IMG/VR virus record: IMGVR_UViG_3300005512_000225
Coordinates: 1 to 30,169 of that record
Length of the DNA: 30,169 nt
Direction: 5' to 3' (one strand)
Source: a virus
Lineage: Duplodnaviria; Caudoviricetes
The translations under genes were made by a program, and so were the position numbers. The notes under the pieces are model-generated. The model saw only the letters and a program-made list of their open reading frames with translations, was not told the origin of the DNA and did no database searches. Shown here in pieces: positions 546 to 26,387 of this stretch. How positions within the stretch are numbered: position 1 is the stretch's first letter; each line of letters begins with the position of its first letter.

Positions 546-2273
546 TTATACCTGATACCTAATAAGAACTACACCAGATCCACCGCTTCCGCTTGCCGAA
601 CCTCCTCCAGATGTTAAACCATTGGAATCCTGTCCATCTTCTGATGCGCCGCCTCCACCACCACCGGTGTTTGGTAAGCCGTCAATGTTTGCTGAATTGT
701 TTTGTGTTCCACCACCCACTCTGGATGATTCTCTAGCGGAATTTCCTTGTCCGCCACCTCCTTGGCCTCCGGATGATTGGGTTCTAATTTGGTTGTGTGA
801 ATAACAAGCACCCCCGCCTCCGCCAGCAAACCAACCAGATTCGCCAAATCCTGTTCCAAACACACCTGAATAATCTCTACCTGCTCCGCCGTCGCCGCCT
901 TGAGCATCGTTTGTTGACGTACTGCCAGTGCCGCCACCGCCGCCAGCGCCACCACCACCGCCACCACCGTGGTTGCCTGAACCAGCACTTGCTGATCCTG
1001 AGTTTCCGCCTGAATTTCCGTATGATTCCCAACCTGATGGAGTTGTTTTGTTAGAACTTGCTCCAATGTTGTTAGAGGCTGTACCGTTTCTAGCACCAGC
1101 ACCACCACCTGAGCCGCCTTGTCTCGGAGGACCTGCATTGTTATCGCTAGTGCCCCCGGCGCCGCCACCGTTGGCTGTTACCCCAAACCCTGTAGTGTTG
1201 CTACCGTTGTTACCTAGAGGAGCAGTACTGTTGTTTCCTTGGCTTCTGCCAGCACCACCTCCGCCTACTGTGATTGAATATGTGCCTGCTCCAGGAGAAT
1301 ATCCTGCTCTATATAAAATTTGTCCAGCACCGCCACCGCCTTTTCCGGTGTCTTGGTCACCATACCCAGGACCGCCGGCGCCGCCTCCTCCTACAAGAAG
1401 AACGTCAATTGATTTATTTGTGTTAAGCACAAAATTATTTGTACCTGAATTGAATGAATGAACTTTGTAATCCGTACCACTGATGTTTACATCTGTAACA
1501 GTTCCGCCCGATGCTACTGGATTTACAACAATATTAAATGTTCTGTCTGCTGTAATGGTATTTGCTGTTGCTCTAATAGTAAATGTGTAGGTAGTTTGCC
1601 CAGAAACTGCTGTAACATTGCCTGATGATATTTCACCTGTGCTTGTATTTAAATTTGTATTACCGGGAAGGCTTCCACTTTGAAGTGAGTATGTTATTGG
1701 ATCACTGTTAGCATCAGTTGCTGTAACCGTAACAGTTTGATTAGCAGTACTATTCCATGTAGCAATAGTACCTGCGCCTGTGCTCCAAACCGGTGGAGCA
1801 TCAATTGTACCTGCAGGAGTTAATACAGCACTTAATCCTGATGGATTTGTTACTTTAACGTCAAAACTAGCACCTGCTACATAATTTACCGATGCGGCAT
1901 TGGTAGCGGCAGTAAGTTCACCGGAATTTACAAAAGTTGTGGCTAAATTTCTTGCTATACCACTAACACCTGCTCCTTCGATAGAAATTGTGCTTCCTGA
2001 TTTAAAATTAGAACCAGTTATTGTTATAGTTGAATTTGAAGATGGAAAAATTGTACCAGAAATACTTGATACTGTAGGGGGAGCATCAATACCTGCCCAA
2101 CCCGTAGCATTATATTGTTCTAGGAATCCTAAATCTGTGTTGTAACGTATGTTACCTGTAACGTTTGATACACGTTCAGCAGTTGTTCCTTTAGGTACCT
2201 GCATACCATCTGTACCTTCAATTATAGGATTTTTTAGTGATTTACTATATTTTTTATCTGCGTAATCTGCCAT
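546..2273 (-). CDS. Putative fibre tip / receptor-binding protein A: connector motif, IPT/TIG-like and putative Ig domains, C-terminal glycine-rich domain
   Basis: N-terminal VPKGTTAER..GNIRYNT; PPTVSSIS..TITITGSNF (TIG-like); ATDANSDPITYSLQSGSLP (putative Ig); VLLVGGGGAGG...GGGGGAG...NTGGGGGG...GSGGSGVVLIRY is the common phage Gly-rich fibre domain. Confidence 0.85.
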   Translation of the reverse strand: MADYADKKYSKSLKNPIIEGTDGMQVPKGTTAERVSNVTGNIRYNTDLGFLEQYNATGWAGIDAPPTVSSISGTIFPSSNSTITITGSNFKSGSTISIEGAGVSGIARNLATTFVNSGELTAATNAASVNYVAGASFDVKVTNPSGLSAVLTPAGTIDAPPVWSTGAGTIATWNSTANQTVTVTATDANSDPITYSLQSGSLPGNTNLNTSTGEISSGNVTAVSGQTTYTFTIRATANTITADRTFNIVVNPVASGGTVTDVNISGTDYKVHSFNSGTNNFVLNTNKSIDVLLVGGGGAGGPGYGDQDTGKGGGGAGQILYRAGYSPGAGTYSITVGGGGAGRSQGNNSTAPLGNNGSNTTGFGVTANGGGAGGTSDNNAGPPRQGGSGGGAGARNGTASNNIGASSNKTTPSGWESYGNSGGNSGSASAGSGNHGGGGGGGAGGGGGTGSTSTNDAQGGDGGAGRDYSGVFGTGFGESGWFAGGGGGACYSHNQIRTQSSGGQGGGGQGNSARESSRVGGGTQNNSANIDGLPNTGGGGGGASEDGQDSNGLTSGGGSASGSGGSGVVLIRYQV

Positions 2274-2274
2274 A

Positions 2275-5200
2275 TTATCTATCCTTCAATAACCATCCGT
2301 TTGTTGAATCATAATACACCAAACTAAATGCGGCTCTTTCTGTTGTTACAGTCATGTCTGACGCATCACCTTGTATATTACTACCGTTTCTTCCAATTGT
2401 TAAGTTGTTGGTATCAAAAGTACCTTCAACATCAATAACTCTTACTTCGTCTCCTTGGTTCGGACTGCTCGGTAAATTTACTGTCATTGCTCCTCCCGAT
2501 GTGTCTATCCATAAAAACTGGAAAGCACTAGCACTGTATGGACTACTGCTTACATCTATATTTACATTGCTCAAACCACCTGCCGGAACCCAAGCACTTC
2601 CTTGATAAACTTCTAATGCGCCAACACTGGTATTGTATCTTATATAACCAGCAATCGGAGAACCTGGTCTTTCGCCTGTTGTTCCTTTTGGAACTAGTAA
2701 AAACTGATCTGCTATCTTAGCAACAGTTGTTCCTGCAATATCAAAATTAATAGTATCAGTACTTGCACCAGTACCAGATACACTAACTTTTGATTGAGTT
2801 GGACTTGCGCCTGCAATAATAGCGTTAGACCCTGCAACTTTTCCATCTACATATGTCTTAACTGCTTTTTCAGTTGGTACAGCACTGTCACTGTTATCTG
2901 CAAAAGTGCCATCTGTACTAAATTCGTTAATTGTAGCACCCTGTTTACCTGCTGTAATAGATCCTAACTGTAATTCGTTCAAACCAGCCAAGTCAAACTC
3001 TTCTGATGAAAGTGTGGCTCTACCAGTTGCTTGTTCAACCTTGAAGTAATCACCTACTCGGAAGTTACCATCTTGGTCTGTGGTAACATAGAACACACGA
3101 CCACCATTTTCAGCAAGTGTTTCTCTTTCTTGATTTGGTGGTTGTGAGTAATCAGCATCAATAATCACAGGATAGTTTGTGTCAGCAAATCCACCTGTGC
3201 CAATGTCTAGGAAGTCATGTCCACTCATACGTACTTGGCTAAACGCCTCACGGAAAGTTAAAGTTGTTTGATCATTTGGTGTTTTGTTTGATGGAATAGC
3301 AGGATCCAATTGAATTTGACATGTTCCGTCGTTAGTACTATCGCCTTCTAAGAAGTTAGAAACACCAATTACAAAATAAGTTTCCGAATCACCGTCAATT
3401 TGTAATACTGAACCTTCTTTTGGTGATCTATCAAGTTCATCAACATTAAACAATACGCCTGTACCAATACCAGCAAAACCTGCTCTTGTTGCTACTGCTG
3501 TTCTAGTCTGACTAGGGGTTTGATTCAATGTAAGCGACTCGTCTGTTGTCCCTAGAGCAAGATTATTCACATCAATTTCATTAAACTGTTGTTGAACTAT
3601 TGTAGAATTATTAACTGTGGCATTCGAAACAGCAAGAGCATACCCTCCGCTCGATACCGTACCTATACCATTTGCTAAATCTCTTTGAATATTAACTATT
3701 ACACTGTTACCTTGTTCTATACCTGCCGCAATTATGTTAACACCGTCTAGCATAACACCATTAAGTGCCAAATTATTTGTCCCATTGTCAAATTTTTGTT
3801 GCCACGAAACTGTGCCATTACTGGTATATCTAACAATTAAGGCCGTATTATTATTATTAGATCCTTCGTTAAAGTAACCTACAGCATAAATGTCATCCCC
3901 AAAAGGTAACACATCTTTAAATTCGCCTTGTTCTGGAGATAAATCATATTGATTTTGCCATTGTACCGCTCCCGCAACATTTAATCTAAAAATTATAGGA
4001 GCAACATTAACCGCACCTGCATCATAATAACCTGCCGCCATTAAGTAAATTCCGTCTCCGTTACCGGTGTCTAAACGAAGTTTATTGATACGTACATCAC
4101 CGTATGTGTATGAAGCAATATTTGCTCCTGTACTTGAAAGTCTGGTTATAACTGCTTGATTAGCAGTTGAATCATAACTTGCTATGTATAAATTATTTTC
4201 TGCTGTAGCATCTCCTGCTAGAGCATATGTGTCAACACTTGTGGTCGGTGTTCCAGCAAATGTACATGACGTAGCAACTAGAGTATTCGCGGCCGCACTG
4301 TCATTATACTCAAGTGTGCGACTCCACTGTTCAATTCCTGCAGGATTTAGTTTAATCACACTAGAACCTGTGGTGCTGTGTGTTCCGACAGCATACAAAT
4401 TATTATCGTCTGTAGCAAGATCGACTATTTCAGTTGTGTCACCTATGGTTTTCTGCCATTGAATTTCACCTGCTTTTGATATGCTTAGTATAAATCCTTT
4501 ATTAGAACCGTCATATATAACACCGCCACAATAAATTCTATCACTTAATTCAATGGCTGAGTGAATAGCACCATATGAACTTTCATAGGTATAAATCCAA
4601 TCTAAACTACCTGCTGAATTAAATTTAGCAATAAATGGATATGAAGCACTATTGCTCCATGAACTTGATACATCTGTTCCCGTAGGAGCAGTATGTCCCA
4701 CAAAAAATCTATTACCTACTGAATCTCTGTAACTAGTGAATACATGAACGTTTGATCCAAGTTGTGTAATTGAACTAATGGTTTGATTGGTTAATCGTAA
4801 CTTACCAATTAGTGGAGTTTCTGATTGTGAAAATCCTCTAGCAACAGCACCATATTCCCCATATGAGTTGTTACCAACAATACCACGAATCTTACCTCCG
4901 CTTTCTGCTAGATAACCAATATCACAATAGTATGTAAAACATGATACAATCTCAGTTCTACCATCGTTCAATACGTGAATGCCAATACCATCTGAGTTGA
5001 TCTGTGTCCAGTCATTGGCAACCATTGATTTATAACCACCATTGTGTAGAGCACCATCAATCTTAAATCCAGTACCACCTGGAGTAAATGAAGTACAGTT
5101 TTGTACATATGGTGATTGTGAAGTAATCCATACACTTGTATCATCTTGTCCTGTTCCCGGATCTAGTGATACAAGAACTGACCCTGTGCTAAAGTTTCTA

Positions 5201-6771
5201 AACACAAAGTTACGCATTCTACAACCGTTATTCATATGGAATACGTATGAGTTTGCGTTAGGTGTTGATCCGTCATCTGATATACCTACACCAAAACCGT
5301 TGTCATTTGTTGTATCTGGTTGGACTGTAACAGCACCCAAGCCATTACCTTCAAGCACTACTGAACGTCCTATTCTAATAGGACACTGTTCTGAATAGGT
5401 CCCAGCACTAACATTAATACGACACTGGCCTATGTTAAATGTTTGTTCTGCGGCATGTCTGATTGTTTTCCAACTTGTGGTAGGAGTTCTACCATCATTA
5501 CTATCATTACCCTGTGGAGATACATAATAATCATTTTGCGGAGTTAAGTGACCCCAAGTTAAATCTGTTCCGTTTGAAGTAAGAAATGATCCTGCCGGGC
5601 CGATCGGTAAACGCACTGCTTGTGTAGCATCTCTTGTAAGTATATCGCCTCTTGTTGTAAGTACTGCATTTGAATCACCTTGTGCAAGCAGGTTCCAAAA
5701 TGCAGGAGAACTACTAGGTACATTGCCTAAATTATCTTCGTCAATACTAATATACGAACTTTGAGCATACTCAACAGTATCACCTTTTTGATATGTTGTT
5801 CCAATTTGCCAACTGCCGTTCCATTTAAATCCTTCAGTAAATGTTTCCCAATATTGTACATTAGGCGGAGCAACACTTGTTGATCCATCATCGTCGAAAC
5901 CTTCTTTACAAACATAAACATGCCCACCGTACCTTACTAGGTCTCCTGGATAGTATTCATTAGGACTTGTATAATTTCCTCTCCAACGCAATCCATCTAC
6001 AAATAACTCAAAATCATTAGTAATATCAGGTGCGTTATTAGAAGTAACTGATATAGTACGATAAATTTTACCACCATGTTTAACAATATCATTTGGATAA
6101 TAAGTTTGTCCAGATATCCAGTCACTTCTCCAATTAAAGCCTTCTAAAATTATTTGCCAATTATCAGTGTCGGTGGGATCAATTCCTATTGGAGTTTTTG
6201 TTTCTTTTACTGTATACCTATTACCGCCTAGACTGACTGTATCACCGGGTTTATATTGGGTTGCTTGATTGTAAGCCCCAACAAATTCATAACCTTTTAT
6301 ATAGACATCCCAGTAAGTTGCATTTGTTGGCGTGTTAAGAATTGTATTTTGTTTTGCAACGTATGAGTATCCACCATAATAAACAATATCACCTTTTTGA
6401 TAATTTGTTCCACTATTCCAATTACCTTCAAATTGCTGTCCATCTACAAACTTTTGCCAATATGAAGTTTCAGTATAAGGATTTTGATTTGTTGATTCTT
6501 GTAGTGCTATATAAACAGCACCACCATAGGTTACTGTTTGTCCTAATTTGTATAAAGTTCCTGAATTCCATACTCCGGCATTTTCTAAACCACTAACCAT
6601 TAATTCCCATTTAGCACTATCAGGTGCAAATGTTGATTGGCTAGTATGAGCAGTTATACAAACATAAACGTTAGGACCGTATTTGACTACGTCATCAGCA
6701 TCATATGCAGTTGACTGGGCCCAATCGCCTGCCCAATAAAATTTAAGATTTCCTAAAATTATGTCTGCCAT
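2275..6771 (-). CDS. Large virion structural/fibre protein, paralog A (1498 aa)
   Basis: About seven W..T.Y..GD.V.YGG..Y repeats (CBM5/12-like); YYVSPQGNDSNDG..WKTI start of a beta-helix-like region; beta-propeller-like repeats; HDFLDIGTG / VTTDQDGNFRVG core; connector motif; C-terminal IDTSGG..TVNLP.SP..GD.V..GW domain resembling T4 gp34 N-terminal repeats. Confidence 0.85.
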   Translation of the reverse strand: MADIILGNLKFYWAGDWAQSTAYDADDVVKYGPNVYVCITAHTSQSTFAPDSAKWELMVSGLENAGVWNSGTLYKLGQTVTYGGAVYIALQESTNQNPYTETSYWQKFVDGQQFEGNWNSGTNYQKGDIVYYGGYSYVAKQNTILNTPTNATYWDVYIKGYEFVGAYNQATQYKPGDTVSLGGNRYTVKETKTPIGIDPTDTDNWQIILEGFNWRSDWISGQTYYPNDIVKHGGKIYRTISVTSNNAPDITNDFELFVDGLRWRGNYTSPNEYYPGDLVRYGGHVYVCKEGFDDDGSTSVAPPNVQYWETFTEGFKWNGSWQIGTTYQKGDTVEYAQSSYISIDEDNLGNVPSSSPAFWNLLAQGDSNAVLTTRGDILTRDATQAVRLPIGPAGSFLTSNGTDLTWGHLTPQNDYYVSPQGNDSNDGRTPTTSWKTIRHAAEQTFNIGQCRINVSAGTYSEQCPIRIGRSVVLEGNGLGAVTVQPDTTNDNGFGVGISDDGSTPNANSYVFHMNNGCRMRNFVFRNFSTGSVLVSLDPGTGQDDTSVWITSQSPYVQNCTSFTPGGTGFKIDGALHNGGYKSMVANDWTQINSDGIGIHVLNDGRTEIVSCFTYYCDIGYLAESGGKIRGIVGNNSYGEYGAVARGFSQSETPLIGKLRLTNQTISSITQLGSNVHVFTSYRDSVGNRFFVGHTAPTGTDVSSSWSNSASYPFIAKFNSAGSLDWIYTYESSYGAIHSAIELSDRIYCGGVIYDGSNKGFILSISKAGEIQWQKTIGDTTEIVDLATDDNNLYAVGTHSTTGSSVIKLNPAGIEQWSRTLEYNDSAAANTLVATSCTFAGTPTTSVDTYALAGDATAENNLYIASYDSTANQAVITRLSSTGANIASYTYGDVRINKLRLDTGNGDGIYLMAAGYYDAGAVNVAPIIFRLNVAGAVQWQNQYDLSPEQGEFKDVLPFGDDIYAVGYFNEGSNNNNTALIVRYTSNGTVSWQQKFDNGTNNLALNGVMLDGVNIIAAGIEQGNSVIVNIQRDLANGIGTVSSGGYALAVSNATVNNSTIVQQQFNEIDVNNLALGTTDESLTLNQTPSQTRTAVATRAGFAGIGTGVLFNVDELDRSPKEGSVLQIDGDSETYFVIGVSNFLEGDSTNDGTCQIQLDPAIPSNKTPNDQTTLTFREAFSQVRMSGHDFLDIGTGGFADTNYPVIIDADYSQPPNQERETLAENGGRVFYVTTDQDGNFRVGDYFKVEQATGRATLSSEEFDLAGLNELQLGSITAGKQGATINEFSTDGTFADNSDSAVPTEKAVKTYVDGKVAGSNAIIAGASPTQSKVSVSGTGASTDTINFDIAGTTVAKIADQFLLVPKGTTGERPGSPIAGYIRYNTSVGALEVYQGSAWVPAGGLSNVNIDVSSSPYSASAFQFLWIDTSGGAMTVNLPSSPNQGDEVRVIDVEGTFDTNNLTIGRNGSNIQGDASDMTVTTERAAFSLVYYDSTNGWLLKDR

Positions 6772-7037
6772 TATCTATAATCCTCATTTAAGTCGTATCT
6801 TGCGACCAGTTTTCCTCTTGCATTGATCAAGTATTGCATAGATCCGGGTCCTAAATGATACTGTTCGTATAATTCATTGCCATCGCGATCTTGTAAAATA
6901 ATATTTGTAAATTCTCTATCAATTACTTCTTTTGTGTAAACAAGTTGGCCTTTTGCATTTACATTAAATCCATGCAGTGCGCCGGCACCACCTCCGCCGC
7001 CACCGTCTGCGATTAATCTAGCATTACTACTTGGCAT
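6771..7037 (-). CDS. Small cassette protein, paralog A (88 aa)
   Basis: AGGAG SD and an upstream TAAATA box; stop overlaps the next ATG (TAATG); shares HGF..NA.G.L.YT, LQD...NEL and Y.IN..G.L with 20494..20754. Confidence 0.85.
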   Translation of the reverse strand: MPSSNARLIADGGGGGGAGALHGFNVNAKGQLVYTKEVIDREFTNIILQDRDGNELYEQYHLGPGSMQYLINARGKLVARYDLNEDYR

Positions 7038-7067: not shown

Positions 7068-8612
7068 TTAACTGCTTATACTTAAACCACCGCTAAATCT
7101 ATAAGGAATACCGCTTACAAACGGTGTATTTAGATATCTATTAGGAGCACCATTTAATGCACGGGTATTTTGATAATCCGTGCTAGGTGATCCTGTAGTT
7201 GGGTCATACAATCTTGTGTTTACCGCATTATCCTGCAACCAAGCAAGACAATCTGCCGCTGTGTAGTTGGGTCTTGCCTGTAACATCTGTGCTAAAACAC
7301 CTGTTACCTGTGGACAAGCCATTGAAGTTCCTTGTAATTTGCGAATTTTGTAACTGGCATTGTCGGGATGTGTTGTGCTATTTGAATCAAGTGTAGCGCC
7401 TGACGGAATTGCCGCCTGCACTGCATATCCAGGAGCAAAAACATCTACCCTAGGACCTTTTTCTGTGAATCCAGCACACTGTTCTTGACCACTGTTATAT
7501 GTGTAATCAATTGCACCTACGCAGATTGTACCGGCCGCGGCCTGTGGAGTACCGCCTCTATGATAATATCTATTTCCAAAAAGTGTGCTAACAAAATAAT
7601 TGTCATAATCAACGCCACCCACAAGATCCATTTTATGTTCACTGTTGCCAGCCGCCGCAACTAAAATTACTCCGTCTGCAATACAGTCTTCCATGTCACT
7701 TTCTACACTTGTAACCCTTAAAGGAAAAGTAAAAGAACCTTGGTAAAATCCACCCTGGGTCATTCCAAACTGTAATTGTAAAGTAGTACCACCCCATGGT
7801 GTTCCTCTCCAGTTACCGCCATTAATATTTGTGTACGTACCGAAGTAACCCCAACTCATATTAACCACAGTTGGTCGACCTGTGCCTTTGAGATTGTGCC
7901 AACCTCGAATCATGTTGAAACTTGCACTTACACCATATGCATCTGTGTCAAAAATCTTAATTGCATAAATGTCTGAGTTATTTGCCCAGCCATATAATTT
8001 TCCTGCTGTCGTACTTGCACAATGAGTACCATGACCATATTGATCAGTGTAATGATTAGCACCTTGTGCGTATATTCCACTTAATCCACTTGCACTTGGC
8101 CAGTCAATTTGTTTTAATCTAGAAGCACTACCGTCTCGAGTGTTCCATTCAGGATGTCCTACTTCAATTCCACTGTCTTGAATAACACAATCAACACCCG
8201 TGCCATCTAAACTATATGCGTGTGCATAATTCAAACTTGTGCCGCCACCGTATCTGCTTGTTTGTGATGTGCATTCTGCAAATGCCCACGGATAGTGAGT
8301 GTTATTAACAGTGTTATCTCGTTGATGCGAACGAGAAGGTTCTGTAATATTGTGCATGGGAATAAATCCATTTTCTAATTTGCTTCCCCATCGCACATCT
8401 CTTACTCGTGGATCATTTTTTAGAGTTTCTGCTTCTGCCTGTGTTAACACAAAATCAAAATTTGAAACTGAATCTGGTTTTTCGTTGTGCAGTGTTACAC
8501 TTCTAGCAGGTATTGCATCACTGCCAAATGTTGTTGTCATATTATCTAAAAATTCGTCAGCATCTACACCCTTGTGTAATGTTACTACTGCTCTTTTTTC
8601 TTCTGCACTCAT
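7068..8612 (-). CDS. Subtilisin-like serine protease (peptidase S8) with probable N-terminal prodomain
   Basis: Complete motifs: VIQDSG (Asp), HGTHCAST (His), AAAGN (oxyanion Asn), GTSMACPQV (Ser); AETLKNDPRV typical of I9-like propeptides; AGGAG SD; no obvious signal peptide. Confidence 0.92.
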   Translation of the reverse strand: MSAEEKRAVVTLHKGVDADEFLDNMTTTFGSDAIPARSVTLHNEKPDSVSNFDFVLTQAEAETLKNDPRVRDVRWGSKLENGFIPMHNITEPSRSHQRDNTVNNTHYPWAFAECTSQTSRYGGGTSLNYAHAYSLDGTGVDCVIQDSGIEVGHPEWNTRDGSASRLKQIDWPSASGLSGIYAQGANHYTDQYGHGTHCASTTAGKLYGWANNSDIYAIKIFDTDAYGVSASFNMIRGWHNLKGTGRPTVVNMSWGYFGTYTNINGGNWRGTPWGGTTLQLQFGMTQGGFYQGSFTFPLRVTSVESDMEDCIADGVILVAAAGNSEHKMDLVGGVDYDNYFVSTLFGNRYYHRGGTPQAAAGTICVGAIDYTYNSGQEQCAGFTEKGPRVDVFAPGYAVQAAIPSGATLDSNSTTHPDNASYKIRKLQGTSMACPQVTGVLAQMLQARPNYTAADCLAWLQDNAVNTRLYDPTTGSPSTDYQNTRALNGAPNRYLNTPFVSGIPYRFSGGLSISS

Positions 8613-12717: not shown

Positions 12718-12727
12718 CGGAGACAAT

Positions 12728-15982: not shown

Positions 15983-18900
15983 TTATAACTCCAATAGTTT
16001 CCAACCTTGTGAAGCACCTACATATAGTAGTTGAAACCCTGCATGTTCTTGACTAACAACTAATGTATCATTTACTCCGTTAATATTTTCTGCACCAGGA
16101 TCAACAGTTAATGCATATCCATCAAATGTACCGCTTTTATCTAAAAATCTTACATTGTCTCCTACATTAGGAGAAGCAGGTAAGTTAATTGTAGTTACAC
16201 CAGCACTTGTATCAACTAGTATTCTATCATTATTTAGAGCAGTATACCCTGTGTCAGCATCTGTTTTAGTTACCCACGGATTGCCGCCGCCAAGTCCACT
16301 CCACGCTCCATTGACATATCCTTCGAATGCATTAATAGTTGTATTATATCTAATATATCCGTTAGTAGGTGTACTTGGTCTTTCAGCAGTTGTGCCTTGA
16401 GGAATAAGCAAATATTCTTTACCAATTTGTGCTACATTACCACCGTGAATATCAAAATTAATAGTGTCTGTTGCTAGACCCGAGCCAACAACTTCTACTT
16501 TTGATTGAGTTGGCGATAATCCAACTTGAATTGTTCCTGCTCCTGCGACTGCTTGTGAAATTTCTGTATCTACATAAGTTTTAACTGCTTTTTCAGTCGG
16601 TACCGCCGCATCAGAATTATCAGCAAAAGTACCATCAGTACTAAATTCGTTAATAGTAGCACCCTGTTTACCTGCTGTAATACTACCAAGTTGTAGTTCA
16701 TTCAAACCAGCAAGATCAAATTCTTCAGATGAAAGGGTGGCTCTACCTGTGGCCTGTTCAACCTTAAAGTAGTCACCAACTCGGAAGTTACCATCTTGGT
16801 CTGTGGTTACGTAGAATACTCGTCCTCCATTTTCTGAAAGCGTTTCTCTTTCTTGGTTAGGTGGTTGAGTATAATCAGCGTCGATAATAACAGGATAGTT
16901 TGTGTCAGCAAATCCACCAGTACCAATATCAAGGAAGTCATGTCCGCTCATACGTACTTGAGAGAACGCTTCTCTAAATACTACATTTGTTCCGTCATTT
17001 GGTGTTTTGTTACTTGGTATTCTTGGATCAAGAACAATTTGACAAGTTCCAGTGCCGCCAACACCTGCTATAAAATTATTAACACCAATAACAAAATATG
17101 TTTCTTGGTCGCCTGTAATTTGCAAAACAGAACCTTCTTTTGGTGATCTTTCTAAACCAGCAATGTTGAATACTGCTCCCGTACCAATGCCAGCAAAACC
17201 TGCTCGTGTAGCAACCGCTGTTCTTGTTTGGCTTGGCGATTGATTAAGTGTCAATGCCGTATCACTTACACCTAGTGTTGCGCCTAATAAATCAATTTCA
17301 TTAAATTGTTGTGTTACAACTGTGTTTGATGTTTCCGTAGGAGTTAATGCTGTAAATGCATAACTTCCTGAAGTCACAGTTCCTATACCGCCGCTTACAT
17401 CTCTTTGAACATTAACTATTACAGAGTTTGCTTGTTCAATACCTGCCGCAATAACATTCACACCATCAAGCATTACACCATTCAGTGCTATATTATTTGT
17501 TCCGTTATCAAATTTGTATAACCATTGAACAGTTCCGTTGCTTGAATATCTAACCAGTAATCCTGTATTATTATTGTTTGTTCCTTCATTAATATAACCT
17601 GTAACATAAACATCGTTACCTAACGCAATCACATCTTTAAATTCACCTTCTTCGCTTGAAAGTGCTAATTGCTTTTGCCAAGCAACAGATCCGTTGACTG
17701 TTAATCTAAACACTAACGGATTTTTGTTTACTGCACCAGCATCATAATAGCCAGCGGCCATTAAGTAGATACCATCGCCATTACCTGTGTCTAAACTTAA
17801 AGAATTAATCCTAACATCACCGTATTGATATGTTGCAACATATGTTCCTGTGCTTGTTAATCTAGTAATTAAACTTTGATTTACTGTGCTATCATAACTT
17901 GCTACATATAAATTATCTTCTGCTGTAGCATCGCCGGCGAGAGCATATGTGTCTGTTGATGTTGTAGGAGGCCCGGCAAAAGCAAGTGCTGTTGCTGTAA
18001 GTGTATTAGCCGCACTACTGTCGTTATATTCTAATGTCTTACTCCATTGCTCTACCCCGGCCGGATTTAATTTTATAACACTTACACCTGTTGTTGTATG
18101 TGTTCCTACAGCATACAAATTGTTTTCATCTGTTGTTACATCAGTAATTTCGCTTGTATCACCTACGATTTTTTGCCATTGTATTTCACCTGCTTTAGAA
18201 ATACTTAAAATAAATCCTTTATTAGTTGCGGCATCATATATAACACCACCTGCGTAATATCTATCACTTAATTCTACAACACTGTGAATTGCACCAAATG
18301 AACTCTCATATGTGTAAATCCAGTCTAATGATCCAGCCGAATTAAACTTACAAATAAATGGATAACTTGCTGTGTTATCCCAACTAGATGTAACGTCTGT
18401 TCCTGTTGGATTTGTATGTCCTACAAAGATTCTGTTACCAACGCTATCTCTATAACTTGTAAACACATGAACATTTGTTCCCAATGTTGTTACAGAGTTG
18501 ATTGTTGTATCACTTAATTCTAATGTACCTGTAAGAGGTGTTTCACTTTGTGAAAATCCTCTAGCAACAGCACCATATTCTCCATATGAGTTATTACCAA
18601 CAATAGCACGAATTTTAGCACCACCTTCTGCTAGATAACCAATGTCACAGTAGTATGTAAAGCATGATACAATCTCAGTTCTACCATCATTAAGTGCATG
18701 GATTCCTACACCGTCTGAGTTAATTTGTGTAAAGTCATTGGCAACCATTGATTTATAACCGCCATTATGTAAACTACCATCGATTTTAAATCCAGTACCA
18801 CCTGGAGAAAAATTAGTACAGTTTTGCACATAAGGCGATTGTGATGTGATCCAAACTGACGTATCATCTTGTCCTGTTCCAGGATCAAGTGCTACCTGGA

Positions 18901-20497
18901 CACTACCTGTTGAAAAATTTCTAAATACAAAATTACGCAATCTTGCACCGTTATTCATTTGAAATACATCTGAGTTAGCATTAGGTGTAGAACCGTCTTT
19001 TGAAATACCAACACCGTAACCTTTATCATTAGTAGTGTCTGGAGAAATAGTAACAGCGCCTAAACCATTACCTTCAATAACCACACTACGACCTACTCTG
19101 ATAGGACATAATTCTTCGTATATACCTGCACTGACATTTATTCTACATTGTCCAATATTAAAAGTTTGTTCTGTTGCATGTTGAATAGTACGCCAACTGC
19201 TAGTAGGAGTTCTACCATCATTATTATCATCACCTTGTGGAGATACATAGTAATCATTTTGCGGTGTTAAGTGACCCCAAGTCGGAACTCCGTTGTTTAC
19301 AGTTAAAAACGAACCACTAGGACCAATTGGTAATCTTACTGTTGCACCAACTCCATTGCGATAAATCATATCTCCTGTTGTTGTCATTGGTGAACTTATA
19401 TCACCTTGTGCTAGAGATTGCCATCTTCCTGTATCTGTATTAGGTGTAGGTGCGCCTGAACTTGTGTGTGCTTGAATACAAATATAAGCACTTCCTGAAT
19501 ACTCAATTACATCATCTAATTTGTATTCAACACTAGATGCACTCCATGCACCTTTAAAGTCAAACCCTTTGTTTAAAATTTCCCAGTAGTTTGTATCTGT
19601 TGGTTTAATTTCTGTAGGTGATACAAATATTGCATCTACTGTACAAATATAAGTTCTTCCACCGTATCTAACTACATCACCTGGGTTGTAATCTGTACTT
19701 GATTGCCAGTCAGATCTAAAATTAAATCCTTCATGATACAAACTAAAATACGTAGGATTTATAGGTCTATTACCAAGAGAAGTTTGAATAGTTATATAAC
19801 TATTACCACCGTATCTTACTATGTCACCGGGCCTATAAGTTGAAATATTATTCCAAGAATTTCTATAATTTGATCCACTTACAAATAAATCCCAGTTACT
19901 TGACGGAGGTGCATCGTTTGTATTTGTTGCTTTTGCAGAATAAACTTTACCCCCTAATTCAACTAATTCACCTGGCAAATATTCTATTGCATTGTTCCAA
20001 GAGCCCTTAAAAATATAACCTCTGTTTAAAATTTCCCAATAATTTGTATCAGTTGGTAAGTTGCCAAGCGTGTCCGTTGTAGCAGTATAAGTATAGCCGC
20101 CATACCTTACGATATCACCGTCTTGATATTGTGTTCCGTTATTGTAATCACCTTCAAATTCTAATCCGCCAACTAATTTTGACCAATAACTTGGTTGAGT
20201 AGCAGGAATAGTATTGATGTTTTCTTGTAAAGCAATATAAACTGCTCCACCATAGTTTACAATATCGTAAACTTGATAAAGTGTTGCTTGATTCCAAACG
20301 CCGCCATATGCCAGTCCTTCTGTCATTAAATCAAATTTAGGTTTGTTATCTATAAAAGCAGATGTAGAAGTGTGTGCATCTATACAAACATATGTACTAG
20401 GACCATATTTTACAATATCGTCTTTTTTGTACTCAGTTGCAGAAGCCCATACTCCCTTCCAAGTAAATTTAATATTTCCTAAATTGATTACTGTCAT
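15983..20497 (-). CDS. Large virion structural/fibre protein, paralog B (1504 aa)
   Basis: Colinear with 2275..6771 over the full length, with long identical peptides in the core. Confidence 0.85.
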   Translation of the reverse strand: MTVINLGNIKFTWKGVWASATEYKKDDIVKYGPSTYVCIDAHTSTSAFIDNKPKFDLMTEGLAYGGVWNQATLYQVYDIVNYGGAVYIALQENINTIPATQPSYWSKLVGGLEFEGDYNNGTQYQDGDIVRYGGYTYTATTDTLGNLPTDTNYWEILNRGYIFKGSWNNAIEYLPGELVELGGKVYSAKATNTNDAPPSSNWDLFVSGSNYRNSWNNISTYRPGDIVRYGGNSYITIQTSLGNRPINPTYFSLYHEGFNFRSDWQSSTDYNPGDVVRYGGRTYICTVDAIFVSPTEIKPTDTNYWEILNKGFDFKGAWSASSVEYKLDDVIEYSGSAYICIQAHTSSGAPTPNTDTGRWQSLAQGDISSPMTTTGDMIYRNGVGATVRLPIGPSGSFLTVNNGVPTWGHLTPQNDYYVSPQGDDNNDGRTPTSSWRTIQHATEQTFNIGQCRINVSAGIYEELCPIRVGRSVVIEGNGLGAVTISPDTTNDKGYGVGISKDGSTPNANSDVFQMNNGARLRNFVFRNFSTGSVQVALDPGTGQDDTSVWITSQSPYVQNCTNFSPGGTGFKIDGSLHNGGYKSMVANDFTQINSDGVGIHALNDGRTEIVSCFTYYCDIGYLAEGGAKIRAIVGNNSYGEYGAVARGFSQSETPLTGTLELSDTTINSVTTLGTNVHVFTSYRDSVGNRIFVGHTNPTGTDVTSSWDNTASYPFICKFNSAGSLDWIYTYESSFGAIHSVVELSDRYYAGGVIYDAATNKGFILSISKAGEIQWQKIVGDTSEITDVTTDENNLYAVGTHTTTGVSVIKLNPAGVEQWSKTLEYNDSSAANTLTATALAFAGPPTTSTDTYALAGDATAEDNLYVASYDSTVNQSLITRLTSTGTYVATYQYGDVRINSLSLDTGNGDGIYLMAAGYYDAGAVNKNPLVFRLTVNGSVAWQKQLALSSEEGEFKDVIALGNDVYVTGYINEGTNNNNTGLLVRYSSNGTVQWLYKFDNGTNNIALNGVMLDGVNVIAAGIEQANSVIVNVQRDVSGGIGTVTSGSYAFTALTPTETSNTVVTQQFNEIDLLGATLGVSDTALTLNQSPSQTRTAVATRAGFAGIGTGAVFNIAGLERSPKEGSVLQITGDQETYFVIGVNNFIAGVGGTGTCQIVLDPRIPSNKTPNDGTNVVFREAFSQVRMSGHDFLDIGTGGFADTNYPVIIDADYTQPPNQERETLSENGGRVFYVTTDQDGNFRVGDYFKVEQATGRATLSSEEFDLAGLNELQLGSITAGKQGATINEFSTDGTFADNSDAAVPTEKAVKTYVDTEISQAVAGAGTIQVGLSPTQSKVEVVGSGLATDTINFDIHGGNVAQIGKEYLLIPQGTTAERPSTPTNGYIRYNTTINAFEGYVNGAWSGLGGGNPWVTKTDADTGYTALNNDRILVDTSAGVTTINLPASPNVGDNVRFLDKSGTFDGYALTVDPGAENINGVNDTLVVSQEHAGFQLLYVGASQGWKLLEL

Positions 20498-20754
20498 TGT
20501 GGATTCTCTCTATACGTGTAAATTAGTTGTCCATTGGTATTTATCGAATATGATCCATCATCATCGCCGATGTATTTTTCGTCAAATAATTCATTATTGT
20601 TTCCGTCTTGTAAGTTAATTGTGCCGCTTGTAATACGTGTATACAGCAAATCACCGTTTGCATTCTTTGTAAATCCGTGAAAACAACTACGTCCTTCACC
20701 ACGTCCTGCTGGTCCTCCTTGTGGATTACCTATAAATGATGGAATAGTTGCCAT
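20494..20754 (-). CDS. Small cassette protein, paralog B (86 aa)
   Basis: Similar to 6771..7037; ATGA overlap with the next gene. Confidence 0.85.
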   Translation of the reverse strand: MATIPSFIGNPQGGPAGRGEGRSCFHGFTKNANGDLLYTRITSGTINLQDGNNNELFDEKYIGDDDGSYSINTNGQLIYTYRENPQ

Positions 20755-20755: not shown

Positions 20756-21088
20756 TTATGTTATCTCCAATACACTTATTGTAACATCGGCACTATTTGC
20801 AGTGTCTGATCTTACACACAATTCTTGTCCAGGAAGAACAACAAGTTTTTGTTCTCCGCCCACAGGCACGGTTGCAGTACCTGCATTTAGTGTTGTACCC
20901 TTAAGCAAATACACTTCTGTTGAGTCTGTATCACGCATAAACAAGTCGATTACAATAGGAGAACTTGTTCTATTTGCTACGGTATATCCAATAACTGTGG
21001 TATAAACTATGCCACTTCCTGGAGTGTATACTGTAACATCTCCTGTTCCTATGTTTGCTGTTAATTTATTACTAAAACTATTTGCCAT
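20756..21088 (-). CDS. Small putative virion protein (110 aa), similar to 26387..26737
   Basis: YT....T.V.....N and (K/R)LV(V/L)..G......S pattern; tightly packed in the operon. Confidence 0.75.
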   Translation of the reverse strand: MANSFSNKLTANIGTGDVTVYTPGSGIVYTTVIGYTVANRTSSPIVIDLFMRDTDSTEVYLLKGTTLNAGTATVPVGGEQKLVVLPGQELCVRSDTANSADVTISVLEIT

Positions 21089-21096
21089 ACTATTAA

Positions 21097-24000
21097 TTAT
21101 CCTAACGCTATCGAATATGTTATTGCTTCATCTACCGCTTCTGCTCTAGTAATTACCTCCGGAGCAGGTATTGTTGAGTAGTTTATGATGTTGATCCTAG
21201 ACTCTTCATCAGGTGCTTCGTCGACAAAAACTATGTAATCACCATCAATATCATACACTAGAGGATCCTGGTATACGTTATCAACAAACGGAATTATTCC
21301 AAATTTATCCAAAGGAGCAACACTTAATTTAAATCTACGTGTGCTTCCATCTCCAACAAATGTATCAACTCTAGTAGTTGCTACACTTGGGGCACTTAAA
21401 TGTCTAACATCAATAATAGCACCATCTTCCACAGGATATGCTGTGCTTGTGTTATCAATGAATATTAATTCTTGTCCACTTACAATGTAACTATCGCCCG
21501 GATTCTGTACCACACCGTTGATTGCTACCATAAGTGCTTGTGCTGAACTTACAGCATTTGTTAGTGTGAACGAATATGCTACACCATCACCTGTAAATTG
21601 TTGATACTGGACCGGAGTACCAAATCCTACACCTAGATAATTCCAACCTGCATCTGGATAGTATGCTTCATACTTGTTTGAAGTTTCGTTATATCTTACT
21701 TCTCCATTTGTGGGCGAGTTTGGTCTTTCAGCAGTTGTACCTTGAGGTAAAATTAATCTACCATCTGCAAAACTTACAATACCTTCCGCATTAATTGTTG
21801 TGCCGTTTGCACTTGTGATTAATTCTTTGTTAGAACCTGTACCAACAAGCATGTTGGCATCATAATTTGTAATTCTTACTGTACCTGTAGCAACAGTTTC
21901 ATAATTTGTAATTGCAACATTACCTTTAACAGTACCTTGTTCAATTGTTGTAATTGCCGCAAATTCGTCTGCACTTTCGTCATAAATGAAACCTTTGTTT
22001 AAATCAGAACCTCTTTCAAAAATAAGTCCCATGTCAACAAAGTTTGGACCTTGTGCAGTTGTGTTTAAACTCATCAAAGGATCTGTAGCAAAAATATTAC
22101 CTGCACTGGTTTCACCCGCACTACCATCAAGTATAACTCTACCTGCACCGCTTGCTCTAATAATTAAATCTTCGTTGGTGTTAATGTTTTCAATAACATT
22201 GCCGTTGATTTGAATTTTACCATCAACTGTTAAACCATTTCTGCTGATGTTAACCTTACCATAACTAATTGGAGTATCGTCAGGATTATTACTACCAACA
22301 TAGAAAGTAAATGTATCACTATCATCGTTTGCTGTTTCAACAGTAAGATATGTATCACCGTCACCATCAGTAACTGATCCGCCACCAATTAATTCCCAAG
22401 CAGTACCAGTCCAACTTTCTAGTGAACGCAGTGCTGTGTTAAATCTAACAACACCGGCATCGTCTGCATCATAACCACCGGGTCTTTCAAGTGTTGTTCC
22501 TCTTGGAATTCTAATACCATGTATTCCAGTGAAGTCAACATACGCTTCTGCATTTGTACTCACTGGAGAAATTTTATCAACTTTCAATCCGTTGGTGCTG
22601 TCTAGTTGAGCAGTAAGTGTTCCGCCTGTATAAAAATCTAATCTATCTTCATCACTGCCTGCACTTATTTCTGGAATAATATAAGTGTCGTTGTCTACGT
22701 CACGAACGCCACCTAAACTTGACCAAGCAATACCGTTGTAACCTTCAAACTGTGTAGTTTGTGTGTTAAATCTAACCAATCCTGTTGTTGGTGATCCTGG
22801 ACGCTGTGGAGTGTTTCCTACAGGTAATTTTAGTCCTGTGTTAGAACTAAAGTCAACCCAATCACCTGTTAGTGGTTGTATGTCATTTACTTTTAATGCA
22901 GTTTGATCAAGATTAGCAACTTCAACACCACCTGCAAAGAATTGTAAATTATCTTCGTCACTACCTGGTGATAATTCTGGTTGAATGTAAGTGTCACTGT
23001 CAACATCTCGCACACCGCCTAGTGAACTCCAAGCAGTTGCGGCGTACCCTTCGAACTGTTGTGTTGTTGAGTTGTAACGAATATGTCCTGTAACACCTGT
23101 TGGTCTTTGCAGTGTAGTACCAACCGGAATGTTAAGTGCTTCTGTACCTACAATATCAACATAACCTGTTGCATTACCTTGTAGTTCTAGATTAGCACCA
23201 CTAATAGTAGTTTCTAAACCGTTGTTTCTAATTAATACGTTGTCAACTTGTATTTGGGTAGCATTTACTTGATTTTCTTCTAGGACCATAATCAAGTTTG
23301 CTGTTACACCATCACCACCGTAGAAGTTTTGTATATGTGCATTTCTCCAACGCTTGGTTGCTTTACCAATGTCGTAAGTAATATCAGCATCAGGAATTAG
23401 GTTACTTTGTAAATCTGCATTAATAATAATGTTATCTGTGTCTTGATTACCTAATGTAATGTTACCACCTAAATCAATGTCACCTGTAACATTTAGGTTT
23501 CCTGTAATATTTGTTTCACCGCTGAACGGAGTTAGGTTAATATCACCCTGGGTGGATGACATTGTGTTACCACTTAAAACTAAATTTCCAGTTGATACTT
23601 GGAACGGATTTACTATTGTCTGATTGCCACCGTTGGTAAATGTAATACCTGTTAGTGAACTTACATCAAAGTTACCGCCACTAAATGTAACAGCACCTGT
23701 GTCTTGGTCTACATAAAATAAATCACCAATTCTATAATCGCCATATTGGTCAGTTGAATTGTAAAATACTCTACCACTGTTTACTTCAACAACTTCGTTT
23801 GCTGTTGCTACATCGTTGTCATTGTTATCAAATTTCTTTCCTGATCCAATATAACCAAAATCATGTGAACTCATTCTCAAACGTACATCTGGACCGTCTG
23901 CTCTAATACCAAATTGTCCATAAACGTTTGCTGATGCAATAGAACGCATCTCTGCACCAAAGTCTTTTCTATCGTATCTTACAATACTTGTTGCTGTTGC

Positions 24001-25776
24001 ACCACTACCGGTTGTTGCAACAATACTTTGAGGTGTTGTATCAAATCCATCTAGACCATCATAACGGCCATCAACAATTATTGTGTCACTGCCACTTACA
24101 CTTTCAACAGTACAAGTTGTTACTGTTGACCCGTCTGTTGAAGTAAATGTAACAACATCACCGGGAGCAAACGTTCCTGTAATTCCACTTAATTGAATTT
24201 TAGTTTTACCATCACCAAAGGTACCGCTTGTACCTGCTATACCTTCAATACCTTGACTTGCAAAATAAACGAAACAGTTAAGCCATTCTACTCGTCCGCC
24301 TTCTGTAATAATCAAACCTTTGGCATTTGGTACAATAAATGTTGCACTGTCAAACAGCATAGCAGTTTCAATTGATGCACTGTTTAATGCACTGCCGTCC
24401 ATTAATGCACCACGACCTGCATCGCCTGCCGCATAGCCATATGGATCATCCGCAGGAGCAGTACCAAGTCTTACCGTGCTACCAAAGTTTAATACTGTTA
24501 CGTGTCTAATGTAAGCACTACGTCTTGTAACTAGAGCGTTACTAGCATAACGGAAAGCATAACCGGTATCATTAAGGCTATCATATTCTATTTCACGAAT
24601 TGTTAAATGCTCAATAGTTACTTCACCGTTTAGTAAGAAAAAATCATTTGTTCTTGTTGCGGCGGTTGGTTTAAGTTGTGTTCCTCTTAGTCCAACACCT
24701 GCTACCGTAACACCTGCTGGTACTGTTAAAGGAGCAACCTCTTCAAATGTTCCTGAGCCAACAAAAATTGTATCACCTGCTGTTGCGACAGTAAGTGCAT
24801 GTTTTAGTGTTGCAAACGCTTCGTTGGTATCTCCACCATTGTTAGCATCGTTACCATTTACAGTTACATAGTAAGCATTACCTGGCTGTAATAAAATATC
24901 TGTGCCGTTGGCATATACTCTACCAGTTCCAGAACTATTGATGTTTATACTTGTGTTTGAATCGTTAGCAAAAATACCTGTGTTGTCGCCATCGCCGTCT
25001 ACGGTAATATTACCAAATTGTAATTGTGTTCCAGCAAGACTAACGTTACCACCTGCTTCTACTTGTAATCCATAAATGTCAACAACACCAGTACCATTAG
25101 CACGAATAATTAAATCACTGTTGGTGTTAATTGGTTCTAGTATATTATCTGTAATCTGTAATTCGCCAATATTAGCATTATTAGCGTCAATTGTTTTCCA
25201 ACGCTTTGTTGGTAAACCTAATCTATAAGTATCGCTTACGTCAGGAACAATATCTGATACAACGTCTGCATTAATTTGAACATTATCTAAATTGCCATCA
25301 CCGAGCGTAATGTTACCTGCCGCAGTAATATTTCCTGTTGCAAATAAGTTACCTGTTACGTTTGTGTTACCTACTAGTTCAATTGTGCCTGTACCGTTTG
25401 GTCTCAATTCAATAGGCGCATTAGAATCTAGAGTCGTAATATAGTTGTCATTAAATTCTAATGAGTCTACATGAATTTTTGAATGATAGATAACAGGATC
25501 GTTACCAGCAGGTAACAATTCAATTGTACCTAAGTTTGAACTAATTGTGTTGTTTTGTAGGTTTAAATTTCCTACTTCAATTTGGTTTGTGGCTTGTAAA
25601 TTTGTTGCGTTTATAGTGCCGTTTACATCAACATCGTAAGCGGGGCTTGCCGTCTTAACACCAATTCGGTTGTTTGTAACATCTAAGTATAATAAATCCG
25701 TTTCAAACGCTAAATCCACGCCATTACGCAGAAGGTTAGCCTTCAACAACGGACCTGAAATTCGACCGACGGCCAT
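21097..25776 (-). CDS. Very large virion structural protein (1559 aa), possible baseplate/fibre hub
   Basis: AGGAG SD; YYVTVNGNDANNG..FATL, HDFGYIGSG and FYNSTDQYGDYRIG show the same core family as the two 1500-aa proteins; four connector motifs, three followed by D.D.DTY repeats; two C-terminal F.GDG domains. Confidence 0.85.
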   Translation of the reverse strand: MAVGRISGPLLKANLLRNGVDLAFETDLLYLDVTNNRIGVKTASPAYDVDVNGTINATNLQATNQIEVGNLNLQNNTISSNLGTIELLPAGNDPVIYHSKIHVDSLEFNDNYITTLDSNAPIELRPNGTGTIELVGNTNVTGNLFATGNITAAGNITLGDGNLDNVQINADVVSDIVPDVSDTYRLGLPTKRWKTIDANNANIGELQITDNILEPINTNSDLIIRANGTGVVDIYGLQVEAGGNVSLAGTQLQFGNITVDGDGDNTGIFANDSNTSININSSGTGRVYANGTDILLQPGNAYYVTVNGNDANNGGDTNEAFATLKHALTVATAGDTIFVGSGTFEEVAPLTVPAGVTVAGVGLRGTQLKPTAATRTNDFFLLNGEVTIEHLTIREIEYDSLNDTGYAFRYASNALVTRRSAYIRHVTVLNFGSTVRLGTAPADDPYGYAAGDAGRGALMDGSALNSASIETAMLFDSATFIVPNAKGLIITEGGRVEWLNCFVYFASQGIEGIAGTSGTFGDGKTKIQLSGITGTFAPGDVVTFTSTDGSTVTTCTVESVSGSDTIIVDGRYDGLDGFDTTPQSIVATTGSGATATSIVRYDRKDFGAEMRSIASANVYGQFGIRADGPDVRLRMSSHDFGYIGSGKKFDNNDNDVATANEVVEVNSGRVFYNSTDQYGDYRIGDLFYVDQDTGAVTFSGGNFDVSSLTGITFTNGGNQTIVNPFQVSTGNLVLSGNTMSSTQGDINLTPFSGETNITGNLNVTGDIDLGGNITLGNQDTDNIIINADLQSNLIPDADITYDIGKATKRWRNAHIQNFYGGDGVTANLIMVLEENQVNATQIQVDNVLIRNNGLETTISGANLELQGNATGYVDIVGTEALNIPVGTTLQRPTGVTGHIRYNSTTQQFEGYAATAWSSLGGVRDVDSDTYIQPELSPGSDEDNLQFFAGGVEVANLDQTALKVNDIQPLTGDWVDFSSNTGLKLPVGNTPQRPGSPTTGLVRFNTQTTQFEGYNGIAWSSLGGVRDVDNDTYIIPEISAGSDEDRLDFYTGGTLTAQLDSTNGLKVDKISPVSTNAEAYVDFTGIHGIRIPRGTTLERPGGYDADDAGVVRFNTALRSLESWTGTAWELIGGGSVTDGDGDTYLTVETANDDSDTFTFYVGSNNPDDTPISYGKVNISRNGLTVDGKIQINGNVIENINTNEDLIIRASGAGRVILDGSAGETSAGNIFATDPLMSLNTTAQGPNFVDMGLIFERGSDLNKGFIYDESADEFAAITTIEQGTVKGNVAITNYETVATGTVRITNYDANMLVGTGSNKELITSANGTTINAEGIVSFADGRLILPQGTTAERPNSPTNGEVRYNETSNKYEAYYPDAGWNYLGVGFGTPVQYQQFTGDGVAYSFTLTNAVSSAQALMVAINGVVQNPGDSYIVSGQELIFIDNTSTAYPVEDGAIIDVRHLSAPSVATTRVDTFVGDGSTRRFKLSVAPLDKFGIIPFVDNVYQDPLVYDIDGDYIVFVDEAPDEESRINIINYSTIPAPEVITRAEAVDEAITYSIALG

Positions 25777-25783
25777 TGTGTTC

Positions 25784-25882: not shown

Positions 25883-25890
25883 ATTTAGTC
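25882..25890 (-). promoter_or_regulatory. Late promoter GACTAAATA
   Basis: The same 9-mer occurs at 27714-27722 and 28265-28273. Confidence 0.7.
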
Positions 25891-25916
25891 TTTATTGGAA
25901 AAAGGGTGTGATCGGC

Positions 25917-26387
25917 TTAGTCGAAACCGTGGATTACTACCACGTCTTTGCCTAGTGGTACAGCACTATCAAAACGTAGTTTGTATTCATTTTGTCCTGT
26001 TTGAACCATTGTGTAGTTTACTTCTGCAATCTGCACAACGTTTTCTACTAGGACTAAAATATTTTTTGAACTTGCTGGAATTGGCTCTAATGGTCCAAAC
26101 TCTTGTTCTACTGCATCACCTGCGCCTAAGTTTTGAATAGTGATAGTGTTTGGACGCATGGTACGTGCTTCTTCCCATGCATTGTTAACATAGAATTCAA
26201 ACTCGTTTAAATCTGTATTGTAACGTATTTGTCCATTTTCAGGATACTCTGGACGCTCTGCTGTTGTTCCTAGAGGAACTTTTACAGCATAATTTGTTCC
26301 AAGCACAACCTGACCATTTGCTTCAACAGAAACACTTGGGTCTGTAATTAACTTAGAATTTAGTTGTTGCTTTTTAACAAATCTCAT
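25917..26387 (-). CDS. Small structural protein (156 aa): one connector motif plus one GD(G/A)-type domain
   Basis: VPLGTTAERP..GQIRYNT..FEFY...W, then GDA..F....LVLVENVVQ..Y...F...P.G..V.V, as in the 948- and 1559-aa proteins. Confidence 0.8.
   Translation of the reverse strand: MRFVKKQQLNSKLITDPSVSVEANGQVVLGTNYAVKVPLGTTAERPEYPENGQIRYNTDLNEFEFYVNNAWEEARTMRPNTITIQNLGAGDAVEQEFGPLEPIPASSKNILVLVENVVQIAEVNYTMVQTGQNEYKLRFDSAVPLGKDVVVIHGFD

Follow-up and report, generated by a model that had tools for sequence, protein, structure and literature searches.

A putative trimerisation knob and a C-terminal XD1-like domain as a candidate joint between shaft and tip proteins of phage tail fibres

What joins the proteins of a phage tail fibre to one another when a single sequence module recurs in seven of their genes? 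The question is raised by IMG/VR record IMGVR_UViG_3300005512_000225, a 30-kb Caudoviricetes fragment (30,169 nucleotides, all of which we call the window; estimated completeness 14%) whose fibre and structural genes lie on the minus strand. A first-pass annotation, made from the sequence alone, had taken the recurring module for a docking or trimerisation unit of a branched fibre. We refer to this ten-fold repeat as module A, to a second repeat as module B and to an XD1/gp9-like domain that ends both ~1,500-amino-acid (aa) shafts as X; the shafts are p1498 and p1504, and the tips, encoded by the gene after each shaft, are p575 and p490. The explanation that best accounts for our data, and in which we place moderate confidence, is that module A knobs trimerise while a terminal X, together with a peptide at the start of the tip, joins shaft to tip.

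A pattern search of the window found exactly 10 copies of module A in 7 minus-strand genes. They are N-terminal in p575 (aa 26), p948 (aa 25), p156 (aa 37) and p490 (aa 35; 502-aa open reading frame, ATG at 15981), near the C-terminus of p1498 (aa 1360) and p1504 (aa 1365), and occur four times in p1559 (aa 883, 984, 1090 and 1343). Hidden Markov models (HMMs) built with the protein in question and its paralogue left out recovered all of them at 40.8–65.5 bits, against 2.7–9.7 bits for the best of 200 shuffles per protein, and the HMM search gave no eleventh copy among 22 window proteins; both methods agree with the number and placement first proposed. The copies share the pattern P.G....R....G..RYN.....E.Y....W and are 25–54% identical in pairs, apart from those of the paralogous tips (72%).

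The profile of the ten copies matches residues 53–78 of CBA120 TSP4 (E = 5e-4), and an AlphaFold2 model of module A alone (72 sequences) has three strands at a predicted local distance difference test (pLDDT) score of 92.6. The eight structures nearest to this model include CBA120 TSP3, Mtd 5–53, the collagen XV trimerisation domain, TSP4 28–82 and HylP1 7–60 (Z 3.7–5.1), and a trivalent nanobody construct is also among the nearest solved structures; Foldseek returned the same set, with a best E of 0.007. The best matches are thus mostly trimeric fibre or trimerisation domains, with low scores. Against TSP4 28–82, 52 residues align at 2.7 Å (Z 4.0, 29% identity), the low Z reflecting a module of only 56 residues; against Mtd 5–53, 45 residues align at a root-mean-square deviation (rmsd) of 3.0 (Z 4.3; Foldseek E 0.6). 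A three-stranded beta-prism is therefore the predicted fold, and module A is very likely a homotrimer knob, its trimeric state being read from homologues. The 'trimerisation' half of the original proposal is in this way supported by both the TSP4 prism homology and the neighbours of the fold model. SAKe, the Kelch-type designed propellers, headed the module A profile search as mere sums of six sub-threshold matches and was set aside.

Family searches in Pfam and NCBIfam gave nothing above cut-off for module A or B. Pfam Mtd_N (PF18454) had no window match at E ≤ 10 and was not among the families matched by 72 module A copies at E ≤ 1. Indirect leads suggest that module A may be Pfam PF26696 (PTL_trimer): PF26696 occurs on 32% of the members of one Atlas cluster, which scores 0.91 against the tip N-terminus, and P0103, a protein with four module A copies, carries PF26696.

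Behind the C-terminal module A of p1498 and p1504, and overlooked in the first-pass annotation, lies the 95-aa domain X. In both cassettes a gene with a C-terminal copy is indeed followed by a gene that starts with one, as had been noted, but the former copies are not terminal, X lying behind them. X is homologous to TSP4 XD1, T4 gp34 81–162 (E = 2.5e-11) and T4 gp10 48–138 (E = 5e-7). The last 170 aa of p1504 (A+X) align to TSP4 51–174 at E = 1e-15, and an A+X profile does so at E = 4e-24. In the published description of TSP4, each chain contributes a three-stranded sheet from this stretch to a triangular beta-prism II that lies on the three-fold axis, and XD1 comes next (PMC8825819). Many of the PHROG families matched by the A+X profile have no assigned function. 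N-terminally, the shafts contain CBM5/12-like repeats. The two shafts are 69–97% identical over aa 400–1300, 36–57% identical in the first 400 aa and about 37% identical at the X end, an unevenness suggesting that the cassettes have undergone gene conversion or have recombined with each other.

The position of X relative to the tips points to a partner. We examined the window together with 314 fetched loci, in which open reading frames were called by a simple script and some contigs had been fetched repeatedly. Across all 2,269 same-strand neighbour pairs, a gene starting with module A comes after an A+X end in 92 of 107 cases and after an X-only end in 39 of 61, compared with 159 of 2,101 other pairs. 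To limit selection bias, counts were split by query. Among loci fetched by their A+X end, the next gene starts with module A in 57/72 cases (63/72 if one small gene is allowed between), versus 23/788 for other genes; among loci fetched by tip, an X end precedes 64 of 111 tips (33 with module A, 31 without), versus 5/327. When X ends are clustered, the rule is followed by 72/91 clusters at 90% identity, 28/39 at 75% and 4/7 at 60%. The order was seen in a jumbo-like group, in Mosig-like Kyanoviridae (Pelagibacter phage Mosig itself has the same junction, gp63 then gp62) and in a third group in which X-ending proteins of 130–136 aa precede the tips. Both shaft–tip junctions of the window recur nearly unchanged in independent metagenome contigs (L239, L240 and L248), indicating that they are not assembly errors.

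Over their first 250 aa, tips p575 and p490 are 56–74% identical; beyond that, identity is mostly 20–40%. A conserved start with a divergent end is what would be expected of exchangeable receptor-binding ends, and the variable tip domains presumably bind the host; the glycine-rich domain of p575 had no sequence match in the PDB. The peptide that precedes module A depends on the upstream gene: it is K/R-N-rich or IR.SS after X, MR(F/L).K after p116-like genes, and of other types elsewhere. Within a close lineage, the type of X end travels with the type of peptide across differing shaft types.

Three fusion proteins of about 1,515 aa, in which a p1498/p1504-type shaft is joined straight to a p490-type tip, provide a second line of evidence. 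Their single module A combines the shaft-type 17-residue loop (found in 12/12 shafts and 1/11 tips) with a tip-type second half; the crossover lies within module A, and both X and the peptide are absent. The fusions are 75–88% identical over their shared length, which points to one event, and one cluster member is present on 56 contigs. At the level of sequence, they show that shaft and tip can form one colinear chain with module A as the crossover point. They are compatible with X and the peptide acting as a non-covalent joint, without proving it, and module A appears to serve as a recombination point in tip swapping. At source, the shaft–tip fusion (P0095, P0118) is named 'predicted RecA/RadA family phage recombinase', which looks like a mis-annotation.

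Taken together, these patterns suggest the following arrangement. Each fibre protein would be a homotrimer, kept in register by its module A knobs. The shaft would end in A+X, with X as a socket for the tip encoded by the next gene, and the tip trimer would insert short basic N-terminal peptides onto the free face of X, continuing outward with its own knob, IPT and Ig-like domains and a variable end. Module B would offer a second, XD2/XD3-type attachment point, and two extra B domains in this lineage's p1559 could carry a side branch such as p948. That shaft and tip join end to end we consider likely; that X provides the contact surface for the tip is somewhat more probable than the contrary. 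A wider generalisation would make the terminal XD1 trimer a genuine socket and treat 'short peptide + knob' as a set of related plugs that differ in specificity; it is tentative, and we would not yet favour it.

Read as a docking model, the first-pass annotation would have the module A copies of different proteins bind each other, p1559 being a hub with four sites. Gene junctions from A to A do exist and are common, the fusions reduce two copies to one, and TSP4 trimers, both in crystals and in solution, are described as pairing face to face via their anchor domains, although the face involved belongs to the N-terminal beta-helix rather than to the prism (PMC8825819). At the junctions, however, X lies between the two copies and would cap the shaft knob as in TSP4, and 31 tips are preceded by an X end that has no module A. 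Wider searches also argue against a docking role: among the best 150 of the 33,855 cluster representatives that match the A+X profile at E ≤ 0.001, 459 of 519 module A copies are internal, with up to 15 per protein. The hub fares no better. Among 41 complete proteins encoded after a p156 orthologue, 34 carry two A copies but lack B, four carry four A together with two B, two carry a single A and one carries two of each, so that the form seen in the window is a local, lineage-specific expansion; moreover, three of the four p1559 copies belong to 101–106-aa tandem shaft repeats that recur in other long fibres. We therefore regard A-on-A docking as very improbable, and a ten-copy knob by itself is ordinary fibre architecture.

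Module A is widespread. A p156 query returned 153 phage records, mainly cyanophages and mainly through the module A region, one module A copy matches 21 PHROG families, and five records examined for copy number gave 2–10 matches each, four of these records being fragments (26–50% complete). Proteins P0121–P0165 include giants with up to 15 internal copies, while others have an N-terminal copy followed by long X arrays.

A more serious objection to X as the joint between shaft and tip is that the two make no contact at all: module A would be no more than a knob, the terminal X would itself bind glycans or act as a cap, and the gene order would reflect shared ancestry. Several observations weigh on that side. 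In the published account of TSP4, XD1 is regarded as a spacer of incompletely understood function and is said to be unable to bind a trimer on the axis because linkers fill both of its faces, and its fold recurs in glycan-binding modules of CpaA and StcE (PMC8825819). X also forms long tandem arrays (146 X–X neighbours in the best 150 of the 33,855 A+X profile matches), and a search of 150 proteins for a covalent X-to-A junction gave none, X never being directly N-terminal to module A. The order has exceptions: in loci fetched by A+X end, no A gene is directly next in 15/72 A+X cases and in 17/17 X-only cases, 47 of 111 tips are preceded by a gene without X, gp113 of S-SSM7 is an A+X protein without an A-starting neighbour, and the A+IPT tips of Melnitz and HTVC022P have no adjacent X. 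Independent cases are few, given that only 4/7 lineages keep the rule at 60% clustering. Since neighbouring genes are inherited together, linkage could equally yield the co-travel of X-end and peptide types; the three fusions represent one lineage and probably a single event; and the fold scores of module A are low, Z nowhere exceeding 5.1 and the best Foldseek E being 0.007. On the other side, the order is held in the jumbo-like group, the Mosig-like Kyanoviridae and the third X-ending group, the fusions show a colinear shaft–tip chain from which X was dropped on joining, and the C-terminal position of X in the shafts should leave one of its faces free. We consider the no-contact explanation unlikely, and retain the X–peptide joint as the better one.

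S-SSM7 also encodes a 152-aa protein, gp111 (L320, 5108-5566), whose start may resemble Mtd_N and is followed by a weak X match (17 bits); this would be a knob-plus-X layout built on a different knob.

Module B has four copies in the window (one in p948, two in p1559 and one in p156), in the number and genes originally given, but with weaker scores than module A. In leave-one-out searches the p948 copy scored 25.7 bits and the first p1559 copy 15.9, the second p1559 copy was missed by a two-sequence model, and the p156 copy, which lacks the literal F.GDG motif of the first-pass pattern, reached 8.0 bits versus a shuffled best of 6.2; a fold model supports the B region of p156. Residues 81–156 of the p156 model superpose on TSP4 XD2 and XD3 (Z 7.6, rmsd 2.2, 64–68 residues aligned) and match adaptor domains of other phage tails, T7-like fibres included, equally well (Z 7.5–8.7), the top Foldseek match of the whole model being TSP4 (E = 0.003). 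At the sequence level, p156 alone had no match in the PDB; the module B profile had none to TSP4 at E ≤ 5, and it matched the P-SCSP1u fibre and, at two places, the K1 depolymerase 9K4A (E = 2.6e-10). No relatedness between modules A and B was detected (hhalign probability 0.2%). The predicted fold of module B is XD2/XD3-like.

Experiments support XD2 and XD3 as the docking sites of TSP4 and T4 gp10 (PMC8825819, PMC11721090; their role is also covered in PMC10253068), and with four B copies in the window the tips might attach to module B of p1559, p156 and p948, like the secondary spikes of CBA120/G7C, to give a branched tree. Gene order favours the X ends: just 3 distinct genes that start with module A lie behind a B end, versus 103 behind an X end. 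Module B is also missing from 36/41 p1559 orthologues, and the fusions tie the tip to a shaft and not to a B protein. Tips on module B are accordingly improbable in our view, and attachment to the X end of the shaft remains preferred. A role for module B as a branch point in this phage is conceivable, if rather doubtful. The N-terminal A+B unit of p948 shares 37.5% identity with its counterpart close to the p1559 C-terminus, suggesting a side branch of the TSP2-on-TSP4 type; placing p948 on the p1559 module B pair is speculation and the weakest step of the model. The C-terminal third of p948 (8621-9544) matches phrog_677, labelled baseplate wedge tail fibre connector (E = 7e-65). A subtilase-family protease gene (7068-8612) adjoins p948, and PHROG family 9158 spans both the protease and the p948 C-terminal domain, indicating that the two are fused elsewhere.

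Features of the two fibre cassettes and the adjoining capsid gene (window coordinates)
Feature	Coordinates	Strand	Remarks
p575 tip	546-2273	(-)	N-terminal peptide 2235-2273; IPT-like domain 1815-2081; glycine-rich C-terminal domain
Module A of p575	2082-2234	(-)	aa 14-64
X of p1498 (2275-6771)	2278-2559	(-)	XD1/gp9-like; candidate socket
Module A of p1498	2569-2727	(-)	aa 1349-1401; immediately N-terminal to X
p88	6771-7037	(-)	Small; immediately before p1498 shaft gene; p86 paralogue; candidate adaptor
Module B of p948	11045-11269	(-)	XD2/XD3-like; aa 67-141
Module A of p948 (8621-11467)	11276-11431	(-)	aa 13-64
p490 tip	14509-15981	(-)	N-terminal peptide 15952-15981; IPT-like domain 15532-15798; then Ig-like, fibrinogen-like
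Module A of p490	15799-15951	(-)	
X of p1504 (15983-20497)	15986-16270	(-)	XD1/gp9-like; candidate socket
Module A of p1504	16280-16441	(-)	aa 1353-1406
p86	20494-20754	(-)	Small; immediately before p1504 shaft gene; module B inserted in relatives from other phages
p110	20756-21088	(-)	Small, conserved; after ..IALG C-terminal end of p1559; candidate adaptor
Second module B of p1559	21175-21375	(-)	aa 1468-1534
First module B of p1559	21394-21615	(-)	aa 1388-1461
Fourth module A of p1559 (21097-25776)	21631-21783	(-)	aa 1332-1382
Three module A of p1559	22375-23166 (23011-23166, 22705-22863, 22375-22545)	(-)	Within 101-106-aa tandem repeats
Module B of p156	25920-26141	(-)	aa 83-156; modelled XD2/XD3-like jellyroll
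Module A of p156 (25917-26387)	26160-26315	(-)	aa 25-76
p116 and p313	26387-27687	(-)	Conserved; precede p156 in relatives
gp23-type major capsid protein gene	29060-30166	(-)	Truncated by contig end; heads cassette

The other genes of the cassette raise the possibility of further joints. Many relatives keep the order p313, p116, p156, p1559, p110, p86, shaft and the termini of these proteins, with exceptions such as L060, L062, L071 and L073; a longer daisy chain is plausible. Two conserved junctions in this order are candidate peptide–adaptor joints: the ..IALG end of p1559 (21097-21140), followed by the small MAN.F protein p110, and the ..LLYSMLF end of p313 (26746-26790), followed by p116 (26387-26737). 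The first pairing accounts for 12/21 such ends and 12/29 such proteins. Members of the p86/p88 family lie immediately before shaft genes in many loci, and in Mosig-like loci (L134–L188) the family protein has 200–209 aa with module B inserted mid-protein. Neither p313 nor p135 had relatives among cultured phages, and the Atlas gave no usable result for p135.

The gp23-type capsid protein of the window is 73% identical to that of Sinorhizobium phage Phosso, 70% to that of Vibrio phage 2.275.O and 67% to that of PA5oct, each of which exceeds 280 kb; by this sequence similarity, the source phage is probably a jumbo myovirus. An endonuclease VII-like gene (28567-29001, plus strand) is inserted after the capsid gene and is not at that place in the close relatives compared. 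Three 2OG-Fe(II) oxygenase genes (11546-13366) lie on the opposite, plus strand between the two fibre cassettes, and in Mosig such genes likewise follow the tip gene. General Pfam scans of the window proteins turned up no depolymerase families.

Solved relatives exist for all three domains, in T4 and CBA120, and both serial and branched fibre assembly are established; 'undescribed system', for which the locus was first put forward as a candidate, is therefore an overstatement. What may be new is the pairing of a C-terminal XD1 with an N-terminal peptide and knob, of which no description was found in the literature searched (few subscription journals, no supplements); passages of PMC9004378 and PMC13250141 contain nothing on a C-terminal XD1 joint. 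XD1 is free at the C-terminus here and genomics indicates a partner, so that a real joint would give XD1 its first defined function and would explain how tips are mounted and exchanged in abundant uncultured aquatic phages and in cultured Mosig. Such a portable joint would let phages of SAR11 and other aquatic phages swap host-binding tips by recombination in the knob, and would annotate many proteins, including the A+X-matching cluster representatives and many PHROG families that lack a function. At this locus, on the same tentative generalisation, p313, p116, p156, p1559, p110, p86, p1504 and p490 would be the eight pieces of a daisy-chained fibre whose XD2/XD3 pair bears a side branch.

Among known systems, the small three-stranded prism predicted for module A resembles, at the low scores given above, the N-terminal domains of Mtd (1YU0) and HylP1 (2C3F), the collagen XV/XVIII trimerisation domain (3N3F, 3HON) and the C-terminal prism of TSP3; unlike Pfam Mtd_N, module A has its own conserved pattern and no sequence match to that family. 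The nine-protein branched fibres of RaK2 and phiK64-1 also belong to jumbo phages and distribute several XD domains over fibre proteins, but these domains are N-terminal on depolymerases, and no terminal XD1 socket is proposed in the sections consulted (PMC10253068).

Among the closest relatives is CBA120 TSP4 (AD-XD1-XD2-XD3; PDB 7REJ, 7RFV and 7RFO), with which A+X is colinear over residues 51–174 (PMC8825819). As in the branched spike complex of Ackermannviridae, it is proteins of fibres or spikes that contain all three parts, module B having an XD2/XD3-like fold in the model. In TSP4, however, the unit is described as N-terminal, with XD1 an internal spacer and docking by XD2/XD3 (PMC8825819), whereas here A+X ends the shaft, module B is carried by separate proteins and the cassette comes after the gene for the capsid protein. 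Unlike in complexes of the CBA120/G7C type, no window protein has the order AD-XD1-XD2-XD3: A+X is C-terminal, and A+B(+B) occurs elsewhere.

The tips differ from the gp38 adhesin of T4-related phages, which is described as monomeric (PMC12032242), in carrying a trimer knob. From the T4-type gp34–gp37 set, only X has a counterpart in the window (in gp34), and no PHROG match there is named gp35–37. The long tail fibre of T4 is a serial one (gp34-gp35-gp36-gp37), its separately encoded pieces being chained in gene order with the variable tip last. X links the window to this phage through its homology to gp34 and gp10; in both T4 proteins the X-type domain lies near the N-terminus, whereas in p1498 and p1504 it closes the shaft, directly before the gene for the tip.

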